DNA of 52,035 bases from Chitinophagales bacterium (lineage in GTDB: Bacteria > Bacteroidota > Bacteroidia > Chitinophagales > UBA2359). Each line of letters begins with the position of its first letter. Position 1 is the stretch's first letter. This document shows positions 8,510 to 31,834 of this stretch, one piece after another. The translations under genes and the position numbers were made by a program. Where the stretch lies: contig JBMZCV010000010.1 of assembly GCA_049613665.1 (NCBI GenBank), forward strand, positions 1 through 52,035, read 5' to 3'. The notes below the pieces were generated by a model. That model worked only from the letters and a program-made list of their open reading frames with translations, was not told the origin of the DNA and did no database searches.

Positions 8510-9685
8510 CTAATATGTAGCTAAACTTTCGTCAATTTCGTTGGCATAAGCCAAAACACCACCTTTCAAATTATACAAATTATCGAAACCAAAAGCCTCC
8601 TCTAGCTTCCGAATAGCATCGGCACTACGCTTGCCACTTCTACAATGAATGACTACCTTTTTGTTTCGAGCAACTTTTTCAAAAGCCTTTTCAATCTGTC
8701 CCAAAGGTATGAGTTCGCCAGCCAAATTCACAATTTCATATTCATAAGGCTCTCGCACATCTATCAATTGAAAATCTAATTTTTCGTCTCCCCAAGTTTT
8801 CAGCGTTTGCACATCTATCTCTTTCACTTCTTTCGGTTTTTCCGTTTCAAAACCCAAATCGACATTGCAAAATTCTTCATAATCAATCAAATTCGTTTGC
8901 GTTGGGTTTTCGCCAGTTAGCGGATTAAATTTGCTTGGTTTCACTTTCAAAGTGCGAGTATGAAAAGTAGCCGCATCAAACAAAAATAAACGCCCAGAAA
9001 GTGGCTCGCCTACGCCAGAAATAATTTTAATCACTTCCAAAGCTTGCAAACTACCAATGATGCCAGGAAGTACGCCAATCACACCACCTTCTGCACAATT
9101 TGGCACTAACTCGGCAGGTGGCGGTTCTGGAAATAAATCACGATAATTTGGCCCTAAATTTCCTGCTGTATCTCGCCAATTGAAAACAGAAACCTGCCCT
9201 TCAAAGCGAAAAATAGATGCATAAACATTTGGCTTCCCTAGCAACACACTCGCATCATTGACCAAATATCGTGTCGCAAAATTGTCTGTGCCATCTGCCA
9301 CTACATCATAATTTTTCAAAATATCAAGAGCATTTTCCGAAGTCAATTTTGTATTATGAACCGTAATTTCGATATAAGGATTCAACGCCAACAATCGTTT
9401 TTTGGCTGTTTCAGCCTTAGATTTGCCCACATCTTCCACCGTAAATAAGACTTGACGCTGCAAATTGCTGTTATCTACCACATCAAAATCTACAATTCCG
9501 ATATGTCCAACGCCTGCCGCAGCCAAATATAACAAGACAGGACTTCCCAAGCCGCCAGAGCCAACAACTAGCACTTTTGCTGCTTTCAGCTTTCGTTGTC
9601 CTTCAATATTAAACTCTGGAATGATGATATGGCGACTATAACGTGCGATTTCTTCGTTTGAAAATTTTATTTTGTTATCTGACAT
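8510..9685 (-). CDS. moeZ: MoeZ/MoeB-like E1 adenylyltransferase with a C-terminal rhodanese domain (sulfur-carrier-protein activating enzyme).
   Basis: The ThiF/MoeB nucleotide-binding motif LVVGSGGLGSPVLLYLAAAGVG and the rhodanese active-site motif HCRSGKRS are both present. The start is called at MSDNKIKF (9685), because the longer ORF runs into a repeat element. Confidence 0.85.
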   Translation of the reverse strand: MSDNKIKFSNEEIARYSRHIIIPEFNIEGQRKLKAAKVLVVGSGGLGSPVLLYLAAAGVGHIGIVDFDVVDNSNLQRQVLFTVEDVGKSKAETAKKRLLALNPYIEITVHNTKLTSENALDILKNYDVVADGTDNFATRYLVNDASVLLGKPNVYASIFRFEGQVSVFNWRDTAGNLGPNYRDLFPEPPPAELVPNCAEGGVIGVLPGIIGSLQALEVIKIISGVGEPLSGRLFLFDAATFHTRTLKVKPSKFNPLTGENPTQTNLIDYEEFCNVDLGFETEKPKEVKEIDVQTLKTWGDEKLDFQLIDVREPYEYEIVNLAGELIPLGQIEKAFEKVARNKKVVIHCRSGKRSADAIRKLEEAFGFDNLYNLKGGVLAYANEIDESLATY

Positions 9686-9705
9686 TTTTTTGTTTTTATA
9701 AATGA

Positions 9706-9885
9706 CAATAGTTCTGACATTTTTTATAACAATTTTCAGTTTCATAAAAAAACTTCTTTTGACAAGTGAAACATACTATTTTCAGTTCAAAAGGCCATTA
9801 AATTTGCAAATATTGGCCACCTTAACCTAAAAAAAATAGTACGTTTAAACTTTTGATAAAAAAATGTATAAATGTCCGAACTGTT
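9706..9885 (-). mobile_element. MITE-like repeat element, copy A, about 180 bp with terminal inverted repeats, inserted between cysO and moeZ.
   Basis: Reverse-complement match to the elements at 12479-12659 and 51959-52035. The termini are CAATAGTTCTGACATTTT at 9706 and AAATGTCCGAACTGTTG at 9869-9885. Confidence 0.75.
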
Positions 9886-9917
9886 GAAATAAGAAGTTAA
9901 AAATTATTTTTTTAATG

Positions 9918-10196
9918 CTAAAAAGAGCCGCCTGCAATAGCTGGCACAATGCTAACAACTGTTTCGTTAGAAATAGCAGTTTCACTACCATCAAGGCTAT
10001 TAATGTCTTCATCGCCAACATAAATGCGGATAAAAGAGCGAATTTGCTGGTTTTTGTCCAAAATATGAGGTGCTAATTTGGGATTTGCTGCTACCAAATC
10101 GGCAATAGCTGTTTGCACATTTTGGCTATCTACATCAAAAGTTGATTGATTGCCTGTAAATTTTCTTAACGGAGTTGGAATGATAATTTTTGCCAT
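9918..10196 (-). CDS. cysO: CysO-like MoaD/ThiS-family sulfur carrier protein with a C-terminal GG-SF extension.
   Basis: 92-aa ORF. IPTPLRKFTGNQ...IRIYVGDEDI...VVSIVPAIAGG resembles CysO/MoaD2. The ORF ends GGSF-stop (stop codon TAG at 9918-9920). Confidence 0.8.
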   Translation of the reverse strand: MAKIIIPTPLRKFTGNQSTFDVDSQNVQTAIADLVAANPKLAPHILDKNQQIRSFIRIYVGDEDINSLDGSETAISNETVVSIVPAIAGGSF

Positions 10197-10247
10197 GATT
10201 TGTATATTTTTTAAGTTAATTTTTAAATGTATTTTTGCTTTTCAAGC

Positions 10248-10664
10248 TTATAAAACGCTTTCTTCATCAAATATTTTCGTTTCTTCATTGAGCCGCCACG
10301 AGCGTAAAATATCGACTTTTCCATTCATAACTGAAATAATGATGTATGAAAAAAACGGCATTGCTTGCTTCAAATCATGCACCGACGGAATGGCGAGATG
10401 ATTTGGATGTGTGTGATAAATGCCCAACAATTCAATTTGATTTGATAATGCGTATTGCTCTGCTTTCATATAGTCGAAAGGCGAAATTTCAAAACGCCTT
10501 CTTTGGTCGCCTTTTTTGCTATTTTTCGCAGGCCGTGCCAACTCGACATATCGTTTTCCGCCTGTTATTTTTCCATACAAAAAACCGCAACATTCGTTCG
10601 GAAAACTCGCTTCGCTTTGCTCAAACATCACTTTCTTTGAATTTTCATTAATGCTTATTTCCAT
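10248..10664 (-). CDS. mec: JAMM/MPN+ metalloprotease (Mec+/QbsD-like) that processes the sulfur carrier protein.
   Basis: 138-aa ORF with the JAMM motif HTHPNHLAIPSVHD (H-x-H-x7-S-x2-D) and an upstream Glu. It lies between cysM and cysO. Confidence 0.85.
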   Translation of the reverse strand: MEISINENSKKVMFEQSEASFPNECCGFLYGKITGGKRYVELARPAKNSKKGDQRRRFEISPFDYMKAEQYALSNQIELLGIYHTHPNHLAIPSVHDLKQAMPFFSYIIISVMNGKVDILRSWRLNEETKIFDEESVL

Positions 10665-10725
10665 TTTAAAATATTTTTTTATCTACAAACGTTTCGCATC
10701 TATGATGCTTTAAAATGTTTCTTTT

Positions 10726-11667
10726 TTACAAAAAAATATGCTTTAATACTTCGCCATATTTCTCTGCATTGTCTGCGAAAATCGTGACAATAGTGCCTTC
10801 TTTTATCTGTTCTGCAACTTGAATCGCACCAACCAAATTTGCGGCTGCCGAAGGACTCAATAAAATACCTTCTGTTTGTGCAACATGTCGAATCATGTCG
10901 TAAGCTTCCATCGTATCGACTTCCAAATTTTGATGTGCAATGCTGCCGTCATAAATTCGAGGCACTTTCGCTGTTTCGAGATGTTTCCAACCTTCCATAC
11001 CGTGCAAAGCCGAATTTGGCTGAAACGAAATCAGTTGAATATTAGGGTTCAACAATTGCAATTTTCGGCTTGTGCCAACAAAAGTTCCTGTTGTGCCGAT
11101 TCCTGTTGCGAAATGCGTAATTTTTTGATTCGTTTGCTCAAAAATTTCTACTGCTGTTGTCTCGAAATGTGCTTTCCAATTGTTTTCGTTAGCATATTGG
11201 TCGGCATAAAAATACTTGTTTGGATAAGCTGCTGCCAACTCTTTAGCTTTTGCTTGCGAGCCATCTGTGCCATCGAAACGAGAAGTATAAATGATTTCTA
11301 CGCCAAGAGCTTTGAGAATTTGCTTGCGTTCTGCCGAAGCATTTTCTGGCAAACACAAACTTACTTTTATGCCCAAAGCCGCTCCGATAGACGCATAAGC
11401 AATGCCTGTATTGCCACTTGTAGCGTCTAAAAGCGTTATGTTTTCATGTATAAATCCTTGATTAACAGCATTTTTTATGATGTTGAAAGCTGGCCGAGCT
11501 TTTACACTTCCACCAAGTTGTTGCCATTCTAGCTTGGCAAAAATTTGTATATTCTTTTTTTGAAAAGCTCTTTTTATTGGAAACAAAGGCGTATTTCCGA
11601 TAAAAGATTGTATGTTTTTGAGTCTTTCAAGAAGTTTTTGGCTGACTTGTCGTTTTACTTGATTCAT
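10726..11667 (-). CDS. cysM: PLP-dependent cysteine synthase of the CysM type (uses a thiocarboxylated carrier and O-phosphoserine/O-acetylserine).
   Basis: 313-aa ORF with the fold-II PLP motifs GGSVKARPAFNII and TSGNTGIAYA. It is the first gene of the cysM-mec-cysO-moeZ block. Confidence 0.85.
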   Translation of the reverse strand: MNQVKRQVSQKLLERLKNIQSFIGNTPLFPIKRAFQKKNIQIFAKLEWQQLGGSVKARPAFNIIKNAVNQGFIHENITLLDATSGNTGIAYASIGAALGIKVSLCLPENASAERKQILKALGVEIIYTSRFDGTDGSQAKAKELAAAYPNKYFYADQYANENNWKAHFETTAVEIFEQTNQKITHFATGIGTTGTFVGTSRKLQLLNPNIQLISFQPNSALHGMEGWKHLETAKVPRIYDGSIAHQNLEVDTMEAYDMIRHVAQTEGILLSPSAAANLVGAIQVAEQIKEGTIVTIFADNAEKYGEVLKHIFL

Positions 11668-11694
11668 TTTATGATAGACGTTTTTTGTATGGCG

Positions 11695-11738
11695 AAAAAA
11701 AAATGCACTTTTTCAACTGAATGAAAAAGTGCATTTTT
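11695..11738 (-). terminator. Attenuator terminator T2, a perfect intrinsic terminator 28 nt upstream of the cysM start codon.
   Basis: On the minus strand the sequence reads AAAAATGCACTTTTTC-attcagtt-GAAAAAGTGCATTTTT followed by nine T. The stem is a perfect 16 bp. Confidence 0.75.
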
Positions 11739-11763
11739 GATAAAAAATATTTTTTACAATAAA

Positions 11764-11847
11764 TTACATAGCTACGCCTTTCCACTTTTGGTGAATGAAA
11801 CAACAACAGCAGCAACAGCAATTGATATGTAAATTTGTAAATAACAT
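11764..11847 (-). CDS. Cysteine leader peptide 1: MLFTNLHINCCCCCCCFIHQKWKGVAM, with seven consecutive Cys codons.
   Basis: Reverse complement of 11764-11847 reads ATG TTA TTT ACA AAT TTA CAT ATC AAT TGC TGT TGC TGC TGT TGT TGT TTC ATT CAC CAA AAG TGG AAA GGC GTA GCT ATG TAA. It lies between terminator T1 and terminator T2. Confidence 0.7.
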   Translation of the reverse strand: MLFTNLHINCCCCCCCFIHQKWKGVAM

Positions 11848-11872: not shown

Positions 11873-11927
11873 AAAAAATAGAAAAAGCCTTTCTTATGAC
11901 CAAATAGTCTTGTAGAAAGGCTTTTTC
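11873..11927 (-). terminator. Attenuator terminator T1.
   Basis: On the minus strand the sequence reads GAAAAAGCCTTTCT-(20-nt loop)-AGAAAGGCTTTTTC followed by TATTTTTTGT. The stem is a perfect 13 bp. Confidence 0.65.
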
Positions 11928-11968
11928 AAACATTGCAATGTTTATATAATAACACAATCTTTCCACAT

Positions 11969-12022
11969 TTATGGACAATACATAAAACAGCAACAACAAC
12001 AAAATGAATGAATTAATCGCAT
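11969..12022 (-). CDS. Cysteine leader peptide 2: MRLIHSFCCCCCFMYCP, with five consecutive Cys codons plus one more.
   Basis: Reverse complement reads ATG CGA TTA ATT CAT TCA TTT TGT TGT TGT TGC TGT TTT ATG TAT TGT CCA TAA. It lies about 40 nt upstream of terminator T1 on the minus strand. Confidence 0.55.
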   Translation of the reverse strand: MRLIHSFCCCCCFMYCP

Positions 12023-12478
12023 AATGAGAAAGATTGAAATATTCTATATTATTTAATACTAAGCGTTTATTTTTAAACGGACTGCTATAATACGGCGTTT
12101 TTTTTAGAAAAACAAACCTAGAACATCATAAAAGTTACAAAGTGTATCTTTAATCAGTTTTGTGACATAAAATTGACTTTTTGGATTATTTTGCTTTACC
12201 CAAATAAAATAATAGTGTGTTTGTATTTGAATGTTTGCTTTTTATTCGTATTTTGAAAAAAAACAAATATTTTGCTTTTTTACTGAAAATAGTAATAAAA
12301 TAGTGCTTTTTTCCTTTTTATATTTTGACAGTTTTTTCACATTCCTTATTTTACACCATGTTTTCTAAAAAAAGATGTAAATTTATTGTTCAAGACTAAT
12401 TTTTAATTTACGCTGTGTCAAAGGCTATTGAATAATAATGCTATTTGTGCTAACACCTTAAAAAACTTGTTAGTTTAC

Positions 12479-12748: not shown

Positions 12749-13429
12749 TTGATGAAATCAAAAATTGTATTAATAACGGTTTTATTTTTCTCGCTATTCA
12801 TGTTTAGCAACTGCTCCAACTCAGCTAGTTGTACTGATGGCATTCAAAACCAAGGCGAAAGAGGGATTGATTGTGGCGACGATGCTGGCTTATGTCCTGC
12901 TTGTTCCGATTGTACCAATGGTATTAAAGATGGTGGAGAAGAAGGCATAGATTGTGGTGGGCCAAATTGCGACCCATGCGAAACAGCAGTAGCGAGCTGC
13001 ACTGATGGCATTCAAAATCAAGGCGAAGAGGGCATAGACTGTGGCGGCCCTTGTACGGCTTGCGACCCTATTATTATAGGTGGCGATGCTGCTATGACAG
13101 CAACCATAGATACGGTAGCATTTGTAGCTACTAGCGTAGTGGCAGTTGTGGTTGAGCCACTTGTGAGCATCACAGGAAATGCTGGCGATATAGGAATTGC
13201 TTTGTCTTATTCTGGCACATTAGAAACAGGTACTTTCGACTTGGCAAGTGCTACGATGACACAAGATGTTATCTCTTGTACATCTACTAGCGGCACGATT
13301 ACATTTTCGAGCGTAGATACCGACAATCAACTTTTATCTGGCTCATTCGAGTTTGATTGCAACGATATTTTGGGTGGTACAGGCGACCATAGCATCACAT
13401 CTGGTACTTTTGAAAATGTAAGTTTCTAA
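12749..13429 (+). CDS. Secreted lipoprotein with three tandem Cys-rich modules (about 25 aa, four Cys each).
   Basis: The signal/lipobox is MFSNC. The repeats are SCTDGIQNQGERGIDCGDDAGLCPAC, SDCTNGIKDGGEEGIDCGGPNCDPC and ASCTDGIQNQGEEGIDCGGPCTAC. A Thr/Ser/Val-rich C-terminal half follows. The modules are also visible as DNA repeats. Confidence 0.65.
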   Translation: MMKSKIVLITVLFFSLFMFSNCSNSASCTDGIQNQGERGIDCGDDAGLCPACSDCTNGIKDGGEEGIDCGGPNCDPCETAVASCTDGIQNQGEEGIDCGGPCTACDPIIIGGDAAMTATIDTVAFVATSVVAVVVEPLVSITGNAGDIGIALSYSGTLETGTFDLASATMTQDVISCTSTSGTITFSSVDTDNQLLSGSFEFDCNDILGGTGDHSITSGTFENVSF

Positions 13430-13544: not shown

Positions 13545-14036
13545 TTAGTGATATTTCTTCAACGCCTTTTCGCCTAATTTCGTCATATCTTGACTCCACA
13601 TCATGCCTTTGTTGCTGACCAGCTTTTTGCCATTAGGTTCAATAATGACTAAGGTAGGCAACGCCTCTACGCCATATTTATCGGCCAAAGCTTTTCCTTC
13701 TCGGCTATCGACATCTATTTTAAGATTGACAAACTCTTTGTTATACATATTAGCAACAGGTCTGCTATTAAAAACTTGCTTGTCCATAATTTTGCATGGC
13801 CCGCACCAAGTTGCATAAAAATCTATAAAAATAGGTTTATCTTCTTTTTTGGCCATCGCAACAGCATCATTGAAAGATACATTTTGGAAGTTTAGCTTAG
13901 TCGAAGTTTTCGATTTTGGGCTAGGTTTTTGGTAAGTCGTATTTTGTGATTGTCGTGGTGTACTACCACAGCTAGATAAAATGACCAATATACTAGCCAT
14001 TACAGCCACTTTTCTCATGTTTTGGAATGTTCTCAT
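13545..14036 (-). CDS. Thioredoxin-family lipoprotein (thiol:disulfide oxidoreductase).
   Basis: 163-aa ORF with the WCGPC active site (FIDFYATWCGPCKIMDK) and a signal peptide containing the lipobox LSSC. Confidence 0.8.
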   Translation of the reverse strand: MRTFQNMRKVAVMASILVILSSCGSTPRQSQNTTYQKPSPKSKTSTKLNFQNVSFNDAVAMAKKEDKPIFIDFYATWCGPCKIMDKQVFNSRPVANMYNKEFVNLKIDVDSREGKALADKYGVEALPTLVIIEPNGKKLVSNKGMMWSQDMTKLGEKALKKYH

Positions 14037-30634: not shown

Positions 30635-31834
30635 TTATGTTTTCAAAACACTTTCGTACATTTCCAATAAATCTTTTCCTATTTTTTGTTTGCTATATGT
30701 CTGTCTGATATTTTTTGCTAAAGCTACTGCATCATATTTCTTATAGTTTTCTATCATATAACAGATTGCATCTTCTAATTCTTGAGGCTTTTTTGGCGAA
30801 ATAAGCAAGCCATTTTCTTTCGTAATAAAAATTTCTGGGCCACCACAACGAGTCGCAATAACGGGTTTGCCACAAGCTAAGGCTTCTGCCGTTACGACCG
30901 AAAAAGTTTCATAGTTGCTATTGACGATTAGAAAGTTGATGGTAGGTAAAAAAGCAAGCACAAAATCATTGGTTTTTCGACCATGAAAAAAGATAGATTT
31001 ATTTAAAACTCCAAGTTGCTTGGCCAGATATTTTAGGCTTTCTTCGTCTTCTCCTCCACCGATTATATGATATTCGAAAGGCTCGAAACGCTGGCTTACG
31101 GCTATTTTTGCGACTACTCGTATAATATCGCTAATGTTTTTGACTTTATCGAACAAATCGCCTATGCTTAGAAAGCGAATTGTAGCATTTTTTGAAGAAG
31201 CTTTATCGTTTTTTTCTTGAAATTCGACAAACTCTACCACATTGGGAATCAAGTAGTTAGGCCGTTTTAATCCATTTTTTTCGATAGCATTTTGCAAAGC
31301 CACAGATACTGCCGTAAAAGCACTGCTCTGAGCTACAAAAAAACGAGTTAAGGCTTTCATCAAAGCATTTTTTTGAGCATATTTGCCATTGATATAGCCA
31401 GACCAATGTTCTGTTATGCAGTATGAAATATTATATCGTTTTTTGATATAGTAAGCAACTGCGGCAGGCCGATTTAAAACATGAGTATGCACTAAGTCTG
31501 GCTTTTCGTGTTCTTCAAAAATTTGCTGTAAAGCTTGCCTGCTTGTTTTCCAATATCGGTTGATGTTGATGAGCTTTTGCAAAGGAGAAAAAGCTGCTAT
31601 ATGTTGTTTGTAGTAATAAGTGTAAGCTATAAATTTTTCGTTTTTTGTTTTTACTAAAATTGGTGTTTTGGTCGCTAAATTTGGGTCTCCTACCACATAA
31701 AGCACAACAATATCTGCATACAAAGCAGCAGCTTCGGCGTGTTTCTGCACGAAAATTCCAAGTTGTTCGTCAAATTTGTTAGGATACCATTTGCTTAGAA
31801 ATAAAACTTTTATTTTTTTCTTGTTATTCATCAA
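30635..31834 (-). CDS. Family GT4 glycosyltransferase.
   Basis: C-terminal ETFSVVTAEALACGKPVIATRCGGPEIF matches the GT4 E-x7-E region. Confidence 0.8.
   Translation of the reverse strand: MMNNKKKIKVLFLSKWYPNKFDEQLGIFVQKHAEAAALYADIVVLYVVGDPNLATKTPILVKTKNEKFIAYTYYYKQHIAAFSPLQKLININRYWKTSRQALQQIFEEHEKPDLVHTHVLNRPAAVAYYIKKRYNISYCITEHWSGYINGKYAQKNALMKALTRFFVAQSSAFTAVSVALQNAIEKNGLKRPNYLIPNVVEFVEFQEKNDKASSKNATIRFLSIGDLFDKVKNISDIIRVVAKIAVSQRFEPFEYHIIGGGEDEESLKYLAKQLGVLNKSIFFHGRKTNDFVLAFLPTINFLIVNSNYETFSVVTAEALACGKPVIATRCGGPEIFITKENGLLISPKKPQELEDAICYMIENYKKYDAVALAKNIRQTYSKQKIGKDLLEMYESVLKT

Follow-up and report, generated by a model that had tools for sequence, protein, structure and literature searches.

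The question raised by this locus is whether the DNA upstream of a cysM-led operon in a member of the Chitinophagales carries two cysteine-responsive transcription attenuators in series. The locus lies in a stretch of 52,035 nucleotides (nt) of the contig JBMZCV010000010.1 (GenBank assembly GCA_049613665.1), hereafter termed the window. An earlier note on this DNA had described a second short open reading frame (ORF) with a run of cysteine codons, which is followed by an intrinsic terminator and placed in tandem upstream of a first unit of the same kind, the two together making a double attenuator. The operon-proximal unit is designated unit 1 (leader ORF 1 and terminator T1) and the distal one unit 2 (leader ORF 2 and terminator T2). 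The double-attenuator reading is supported by the ORF, the terminator and the antiterminator of unit 2, by 18 tandem relatives and by the match of a covariance model (R1) to unit 2. Unit 2, extending from 12036 to 11873 on the minus strand, probably forms a complete transcription attenuator of the ribosome-mediated kind, with charged tRNA-Cys as its signal, and acts in series with unit 1.

Direct reading of the minus strand yielded the mini-ORF that had been claimed at 11969-12022, with five consecutive Cys codons and a sixth. Leader ORF 2 consists of 17 codons and a stop codon (ATG CGA TTA ATT CAT TCA TTT TGT TGT TGT TGC TGT TTT ATG TAT TGT CCA TAA) and specifies the peptide MRLIHSFCCCCCFMYCP. 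An in-frame stop codon is located 8 codons upstream of the ATG, and there is no alternative start. The sixth Cys codon (11977..11975) lies outside the five-codon run (12001..11987). The spacing between the two leaders, previously given as about 120 nt, was measured as 121 nt from the leader-2 stop codon to the leader-1 ATG. Runs of at least five Cys codons occur only twice in the six reading frames of the window, namely in leader 2 and leader 1. The number of such runs averaged 0.007 in 300 first-order Markov simulations of the whole window, and about 1e-5 are expected from the intergenic base composition (25% G+C), in agreement with the view that a chance origin of two Cys runs is very unlikely. 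Leader ORF 2 therefore has the first property of a leader-peptide attenuator, a short ORF with clustered codons for the amino acid of the operon. A role of the leader-2 peptide as a conserved small protein was ruled out, since the Cys run alone is conserved between loci.

The second property, an intrinsic terminator that separates the leader ORF from the genes under control, is provided by T2. The T2 stem begins 41-42 nt past the leader-2 stop codon and is formed by the 5' arm G-AAAAAGCCTTTCT (also written G-AAAAAGCCUUUCU) and the 3' arm AGAAAGGCTTTTT-C (also written AGAAAGGCUUUUU-C). Its perfect pairs number 13, or 14 if the closing G-C pair is counted, and it is followed by the tail UAUUUUUUG down to position 11873. 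The terminator proposed at 11873-11927, about 40 nt after the ORF and with a 13-bp perfect stem and a U-tract, was thus recovered with a predicted energy of -21.2 kcal/mol. A generic terminator scan missed both T1 and T2 only because their loops or stems exceeded the limits of the scan. T2 as the terminator of an upstream gene was ruled out, since the next gene (12749..13429) is divergent. The stem sequence of T2, GCCUUUC(C/U)/GGAAAGGC, represents the consensus of the whole family of related leaders described below, and the terminator stem is near-constant across loci (AAAGCCUUUCC ... GGAAAGGCUUU), though some variation is present. When 17 upstream units from other loci were aligned, the T2-type helix was paired in 91% of its cells, and both-side changes were found in 9 of the 12 helix pairs. 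The terminator helix outperformed every slid control. It also outperformed each of the 500 column shuffles on four of five measures, and 19 of them equalled it in the remaining measure, the number of further pair types.

The third property, an antiterminator that excludes the terminator and depends on the ribosome, is provided by a strand immediately downstream of leader ORF 2. This strand, UGUGGAAAG (region 2, 11967..11959), can form nine pairs with CUUUCUACA (11919..11911), which belongs to the 5' arm and the loop of T2, and the duplex has a predicted energy of -11.4 kcal/mol. When the Cys run was masked and the 3' arm of T2 was treated as not yet made, the antiterminator appeared as the outer helix of the minimum-free-energy structure. 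When the footprint of a ribosome at the stop codon was masked, which covers region 2, terminator T2 alone formed. In the untranslated leader, region 2 paired with CAAUCUUUCUCAUU just 5' of the AUG, and the terminator formed. The masked folds accordingly switch between the two states. In the relatives, complementarity to the 5' arm of the terminator is found in a segment 10-30 nt past the Cys run, and this pairing reached p<=0.05 against shuffles in 13 of 15 upstream units at the same position. On account of the switching folds and of these relatives, region 2 is assigned as the antiterminator strand. The same shuffle test gave p<=0.05 in 9 of 14 downstream units and in 69% of 48 single units. 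The upstream units of the relatives carry a GGAAAGG-like strand at the position of region 2, and region 2 follows the locus-specific bases at the loop end of the terminator stem, as seen in L047 (GUGG/CCAC), L033 (AUGG/CCAU), L071 (GGGAGG/CCUCCC), L069 (CAGUAGG/CCUGCUG) and the window (UGUGGA/UCUACA), where L numbers denote related loci.

These features lead to the following model. RNA polymerase would start upstream of leader 2, and a ribosome would translate the 17-codon ORF. With an ample supply of Cys-tRNA, the ribosome would reach the UAA codon and cover UGUGGAAAG, which begins 2 nt past the stop codon, so that T2 could fold and transcription would end at the U-tract. With scarce Cys-tRNA, the ribosome would stall in the five-codon Cys run, at least 20 nt upstream of region 2; the region thereby set free would pair with CUUUCUACA of the T2 5' arm, T2 would be blocked and the polymerase would read on. 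The same decision would be repeated at the seven Cys codons of leader 1 and at T1. The two read-through probabilities would then multiply, and transcription of the operon would scale with their product, with lower basal leakage and a steeper response to cysteine. We infer the translation of leader 2, the position of the promoter, the stalling of the ribosome and the multiplicative output from the arrangement of these elements. The lower leak and the steeper response are expected by analogy with tandem riboswitches of identical ligand specificity, which have been termed 'pseudo-cooperative' (PMC9481103).

Table 1. Features of the tandem leader region and of the operon downstream of it. Positions are those of the window.
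Feature	Position	Strand	Remarks
Candidate Bacteroidota promoter	12113..12141	minus	TTTG 12141..12138, 17-nt spacer, -7 box TAGGTTTG 12120..12113; predicted start near 12108
Region 1, possible anti-antiterminator CAAUCUUUCUCAUU	12023..12036	minus	directly 5' of leader-2 AUG; can pair with the GGAAAGAUUG strand
Leader ORF 2	11969..12022	minus	MRLIHSFCCCCCFMYCP + stop; one possible start codon only
Sensor of unit 2	11987..12001	minus	five Cys codons in a row, UGU UGU UGU UGC UGU
Region 2, antiterminator 5' strand UGUGGAAAG	11959..11967	minus	starts 2 nt past leader-2 stop codon
Small hairpin AAACAUUGCAAUGUUU	11928..11943	minus	predicted fold; between region 2 and T2
Intrinsic terminator T2	11873..11927	minus	regions 3/4 = arms 11926..11914 / 11894..11882, U-tract UUUUUCUAUUUUUU; -21.2 kcal/mol
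One-mismatch -7-like box TATTTTTT	11873..11880	minus	within U-tract of T2; leader-1 ATG follows after 33 nt; may be an internal promoter
Leader ORF 1	11764..11847	minus	MLFTNLHINCCCCCCCFIHQKWKGVAM; 7 Cys codons at 11820..11800
Intrinsic terminator T1	11692..11736	minus	including U-tract (hairpin 11736..11701); -18.2 kcal/mol
Regulated operon	8510..11667	minus	cysM, JAMM/mec, cysO, moeZ
cysM-like pyridoxal phosphate enzyme	11667..10726	minus	first operon gene
JAMM/Mec-like metalloprotease	10664..10248	minus	second operon gene
CysO-like ThiS/MoaD-fold sulfur carrier	10196..9918	minus	third operon gene; 92 aa, GG-like C-terminal end
MoeZ-like adenylyltransferase + rhodanese domain	9745..8510	minus	fourth operon gene

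The comparative search was based on CysM and yielded 80 loci from genomes and 80 from metagenomes, nearly all of them from Bacteroidota. The 700-1000 nt located 5' of cysM were scanned by a script for mini-ORFs with at least three consecutive Cys codons, for terminators consisting of a hairpin and a T-tract, and for the Bacteroidota -7 promoter box. Of about 140 related loci of Bacteroidota, most had a Cys-run mini-ORF and a terminator upstream of cysM. Where upstream DNA sufficed, in the window and 76 genome loci, a single unit was counted 48 times and two complete units 14 times, the window included; the 11 loci scored as having none are partly filter artefacts, as Cys runs are present in some of them. 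Four further tandem loci (L085, L086, L090 and L099) were found in the metagenome set. The set of 19 tandem loci analysed here consists of the window, L001, L008, L010, L012, L018, L027, L033, L042, L045, L047, L058, L069, L070, L071 and the four metagenome loci. In the 18 other loci the two units precede the same operon with order and orientation unchanged, and the second unit is consequently conserved, as the double-attenuator reading demands. As a negative control, Cys-run ORFs were found upstream of none of 15 CysM/CysK homologues with at most 42% identity. The gene order cysM-mec-cysO-moeZ is kept in 72 of 80 related loci.

A neighbour-joining tree of the CysM proteins revealed that the tandem state is clustered and that the sister of the window, L001 (67% CysM identity), is also tandem. 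A large tandem clade includes the window, L001, L008/L085/L086, L010, L047, L012/L090/L018/L027, L071 and L033, with single-unit lineages nested inside. A second one consists of L070, L099, L058 and L069, and L045 and L042 are isolated. Read most simply, the tree points to an old tandem state in the clade of the window, with occasional losses.

Moreover, the two units of a tandem locus differ in type. In 17 of the 19 tandem loci, Cys codons are less numerous in the upstream than in the downstream unit (five versus seven in the window). In 14 of 15 loci the stop codon of the upstream ORF ends 12-27 nt past the Cys run, at or just before the GGAAAGG-like strand, the exception being L042 with 54 nt; the downstream ORF reads through this strand and stops 30-54 nt past the run. 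Both leaders of the window fit this pattern exactly.

The covariance model R1 was built from the 17 upstream units of other loci, with the window excluded and the terminator as its structure, and its features are the Cys-codon run, the GGAAAGG-like strand, the GCCUUUCC/GGAAAGGC terminator and the U-tract. When R1 was applied to the window, unit 2 was the top match (42.5 bits, E ~1.7e-7) and unit 1 the second (40.4 bits), so that this model of the upstream type scored the two units almost equally. Unit 2 thereby belongs to the Cys-leader family of Bacteroidota cysM operons that is defined by R1, and the operon context is conserved as well. A third match at 31555..31651 on the plus strand (24.7 bits) was classified as spurious, as it is devoid of a Cys run and lies antisense within a 399-aa ORF (30635..31834, minus strand); a third unit or further copies were not found in the window. 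A scan of the region against Rfam 15 (E<=10) returned sub-threshold matches only, including TD-1 (RF03155) with 31.5 bits versus 64.5 bits required and Phe_leader (RF01859) with 19 bits versus 55 required. Since these scores remain below the gathering thresholds, a known leader or cis-regulatory family of Rfam was ruled out for unit 2. In a set of nine tandem loci, matches to Rfam 15 at the gathering level were likewise absent.

Several observations weigh against the proposed role of unit 2. The loop of T2, with 19 nt, is unusually long. The antiterminator duplex of the window is marginal when compared with shuffled sequences (z = -1.6, p = 0.07), although it sits at the position that is typical of the family. 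The strongest competitor for region 2 is the segment located 5' of the AUG: in the minimum-free-energy fold of the untranslated leader, positions 12023..12036 pair with 11968..11955, and this duplex has a predicted energy of -13.8 kcal/mol. It is not obvious that this segment would be covered by a ribosome that has stalled in the Cys run. The segment is a possible region 1, i.e. an anti-antiterminator, and this role may be taken in the window either by the 5' segment or by the small UCCAU/GUGGA hairpin. As regards conservation, none of the relatives above 70% CysM identity has upstream DNA that extends over unit 2. An exact-protein look-up for closer relatives retrieved only an identical 2.7-kb contig (L081, SRR27204699), and the contig of L082 (91% CysM identity) contains 93 nt of upstream DNA, spanning T1 and ending before unit 2. 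Finally, the leader-2 ATG has no good -7 box within 50 nt, the sole exact one being located 98 nt upstream, and the one-mismatch box TATTTTTT in the U-tract of T2 is accompanied by a TTTG 20 nt upstream and stands at a typical distance of 33 nt from the leader-1 ATG.

The last two observations bear on the number of promoters. The -7 promoter box of Bacteroidota reads TAnnTTTG, as established in promoter studies of Bacteroides and Flavobacterium. This box was used for the search, and a generic promoter model was set aside as unsuited to Bacteroidota. The -7 box TAGGTTTG of the candidate promoter is the sole exact TAnnTTTG on the operon strand of the 1081-nt intergenic region, in which about one is expected by chance. 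Exact boxes were then scored within 10-48 nt upstream of the leader ATG, with 1.8% as the value for random upstream positions. They were detected in 37 of 86 loci with single units and before 5 of the 19 upstream leaders of tandem loci, but before none of the 19 downstream leaders. In the relatives the exact boxes stand 12-42 nt before the first leader ATG, and the near-consensus TAnnATTG recurs 16-18 nt before several more upstream leaders. This distribution, with exact boxes before upstream leaders and never before downstream ones, speaks for one promoter only, placed before the upstream leader, that would drive both units, with a 5' untranslated region that is often very short or absent. 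In single-unit loci such as L009, L036, L044 and L064, the exact box starts 12-35 nt before the ATG in 36 of 37 cases and 42 nt before it in the other, a spacing that implies leaderless or very short-leader mRNAs of the Cys ORF.

An internal promoter in or just after T2 that drives leader 1 and the operon would turn the locus into two independently transcribed units, with unit 2 merely insulating or gating upstream transcription and without multiplicative control of most transcripts. The box TATTTTTT with its typical spacing and the lack of a good -7 box close to the leader-2 ATG speak for this arrangement. It is nevertheless considered unlikely, in view of the complete lack of exact boxes before downstream leaders, and because the one-mismatch boxes before downstream leaders of other loci are mostly T-tracts of terminators without the TA. 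Furthermore, a unit without a regulatory function would not be expected to keep its ORF, antiterminator and terminator intact across lineages with about 55-67% CysM identity to the window. An action in trans, by a Cys-rich peptide or by a short terminated transcript comparable to the attenuator-derived small RNA rnTrpL/peTrpL of Sinorhizobium, either instead of or besides regulation in cis, appears very improbable. Trans-acting attenuator products have a precedent (PMC7298713 and PMC7968998), and a terminated RNA of about 150-235 nt would be made constitutively under repressing conditions; however, the peptides are not conserved between loci outside the Cys run, codon identity and RNA pairing being conserved instead, and the unit always directly precedes the cysM operon and shares its strand. 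Least probable of all is the idea that unit 2 is a decaying duplicate from a recent tandem duplication without present function, for although both units have the GUGGAAAG motif and the layout in common and the single-unit lineages nested among tandem ones make a loss of units possible, the peptides, terminator sequences and loop sizes of the two units all differ, unit 2 resembles the upstream type of other loci in its fewer Cys codons and its stop codon at region 2, which argues against a recent or decaying copy of unit 1, its ORF, start, stop, antiterminator and terminator of -21 kcal/mol are all intact, and the two-unit layout recurs in the nearest relative, L001.

Two complete attenuators in series thus remain the preferred interpretation, and they can be compared with known systems. 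Leader-peptide attenuation has been predicted for amino-acid operons of Flavobacterium psychrophilum (PMC9723704). The units share with the classical attenuators of Proteobacteria (trpL, hisL, pheL, leuL, thrL and ilvL) a short ORF in which codons for the end product form a run, a terminator before the structural genes, and mutually exclusive terminator and antiterminator helices that are chosen by the position of the ribosome; they differ in that the regulatory amino acid is cysteine and in that two complete units are arranged in series. A terminator-based leader-peptide attenuator for cysteine was found neither in Rfam 15 nor in the literature searched, and Canestrari et al. (2020, bioRxiv 10.1101/834739) stated that, to their knowledge, attenuation for cysteine mediated by upstream ORFs had not been described before. 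Upstream ORFs with Cys codons are so far known from Actinobacteria alone. They were predicted there without terminators (Seliverstov et al. 2005, PMC1262725), and in Mycobacterium smegmatis the polycysteine upstream ORFs were shown to unmask a Shine-Dalgarno site and thereby to act on translation (bioRxiv 10.1101/834739). As in these mycobacterial leaderless small ORFs, a Cys run in a tiny upstream ORF would sense the supply of Cys-tRNA and control operons of cysteine metabolism, and the positions of the -7 boxes in many relatives imply leaderless or near-leaderless leader ORFs. In the mycobacterial case terminators are lacking, the Shine-Dalgarno region of the gene that follows base-pairs with the Cys tract, and the ORFs are single and not tandem. 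In contrast, each unit of the window has a strong intrinsic terminator with a U-tract, and there is no sequence relationship between the systems, which belong to different phyla. Unit 2 is therefore not assigned to the mycobacterial translational attenuators, since the units end in terminators and the next start follows only 121 nt on, beyond T2.

The one described case of tandem attenuators with a pair of leader ORFs is the leader of the Salmonella mgtCBR operon, in which mgtM and mgtP form attenuators for ATP and proline that are additive, lack intrinsic terminators and were called a singular example (Lee and Groisman 2012, PMC3641672). As in mgtCBR, two short ORFs are located in one mRNA leader and each would control transcription elongation into the operon; unlike in mgtCBR, a single amino acid would be the signal of both units, and each is equipped with an intrinsic terminator of its own. 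The serial placement of two complete modules of sensor and terminator for one signal before one operon is shared with the pseudo-cooperative riboswitches, for which a steeper, more 'digital' response and a lower leak are expected (review by Sherlock and Breaker, PMC9481103), although the sensor here would be a ribosome translating regulatory codons and not a ligand-binding aptamer. Descriptions of Cys leader attenuators in Bacteroidota were absent from the literature searched, with one older survey (Lopatovskaya et al. 2010, Mol Biol 44:128) outside its coverage, and the same holds, with the same exception, for tandem leader-peptide attenuators that respond to one signal.

On balance, the locus appears to represent an undescribed Cys-codon terminator attenuator of Bacteroidota, of which a large clade keeps two differentiated serial copies by selection, an upstream 'gate' with 3-5 Cys codons and a downstream 'sensor' with 3-8, usually 6-7, Cys codons. 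Such a pair would be the ribosome-based equivalent of tandem pseudo-cooperative riboswitches, with an ultrasensitive and low-leak output. Together with about 100 relatives, the locus would add cysteine to the signals of classical terminator-based attenuation and would bring in Bacteroidota, a phylum with unusual translation initiation; to our knowledge, initiation in Bacteroidota is not led by Shine-Dalgarno sequences. It would also add a rare natural case of two ribosome-dependent attenuators for the same signal in series, and it makes a quantitative question testable, namely whether serial attenuation sharpens the dose-response as proposed for tandem riboswitches. In addition, R1 provides a simple annotation signature for a widespread but unannotated regulatory element. 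The operon downstream of the two units is the gene set for cysteine synthesis dependent on a protein thiocarboxylate, as known for CysO/CysM/Mec/MoeZ of Mycobacterium tuberculosis. The leader element would mark cysM-mec-cysO-moeZ as genuinely cysteine-regulated in these bacteria and back the assignment to cysteine synthesis.

With respect to unit 1, the coordinates of leader 1 were corrected to 11847..11764 and those of its Cys run to 11820..11800. Within leader 1 lies the antiterminator strand shared by the whole family, GGAAAGGC, whose complement is the 5' arm of T2 (GCCUUUCU). The stem of T1 has diverged to GCACUUUUUC/GAAAAAGUGC, and a neighbouring AAAAGUG in leader 1 matches this new stem. 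The GGAAAGGC strand in leader 1 is possibly a relic of an ancestral T1 of the GCCUUUCC type, or it might reflect cross-talk between both units. In the metagenome locus L082 (positions 1-93 aligned with 11668..11760 of the window), T1 is kept with a compensatory change from UGCAC...GUGCA to AGCAC...GUGCU.

In upstream units of the Saprospiraceae type, the Cys codons themselves are part of a helix between regions 1 and 2, a detail in which the window differs. The upstream units of L010, L012, L018, L027 and L047 contain a conserved ACAACAAATTATAA(T/C) between the antiterminator strand and the terminator, 20-40 nt before the latter. In these five loci a GGCAACAA-like sequence directly follows the GGAAAGG strand and pairs with the Cys codons themselves in a classical 1:2 helix; the conserved element includes ATTATAAT. 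In L049 and L067, two Flavobacteriales-like loci, Cys-run mini-ORFs with 5-6 Cys codons are located about 830 nt upstream of cysM, much further than usual, which suggests that an extra gene was inserted between the attenuator and cysM. On the other side of the intergenic region of the window, the divergent gene 12749..13429 (plus strand) encodes a lipoprotein-like product with three Cys-rich repeats (CTDGIQNQGExGIDCGG) and is followed by a gene for a thioredoxin-like lipoprotein (13545..14036, minus strand); both adjoin the cysteine operon.

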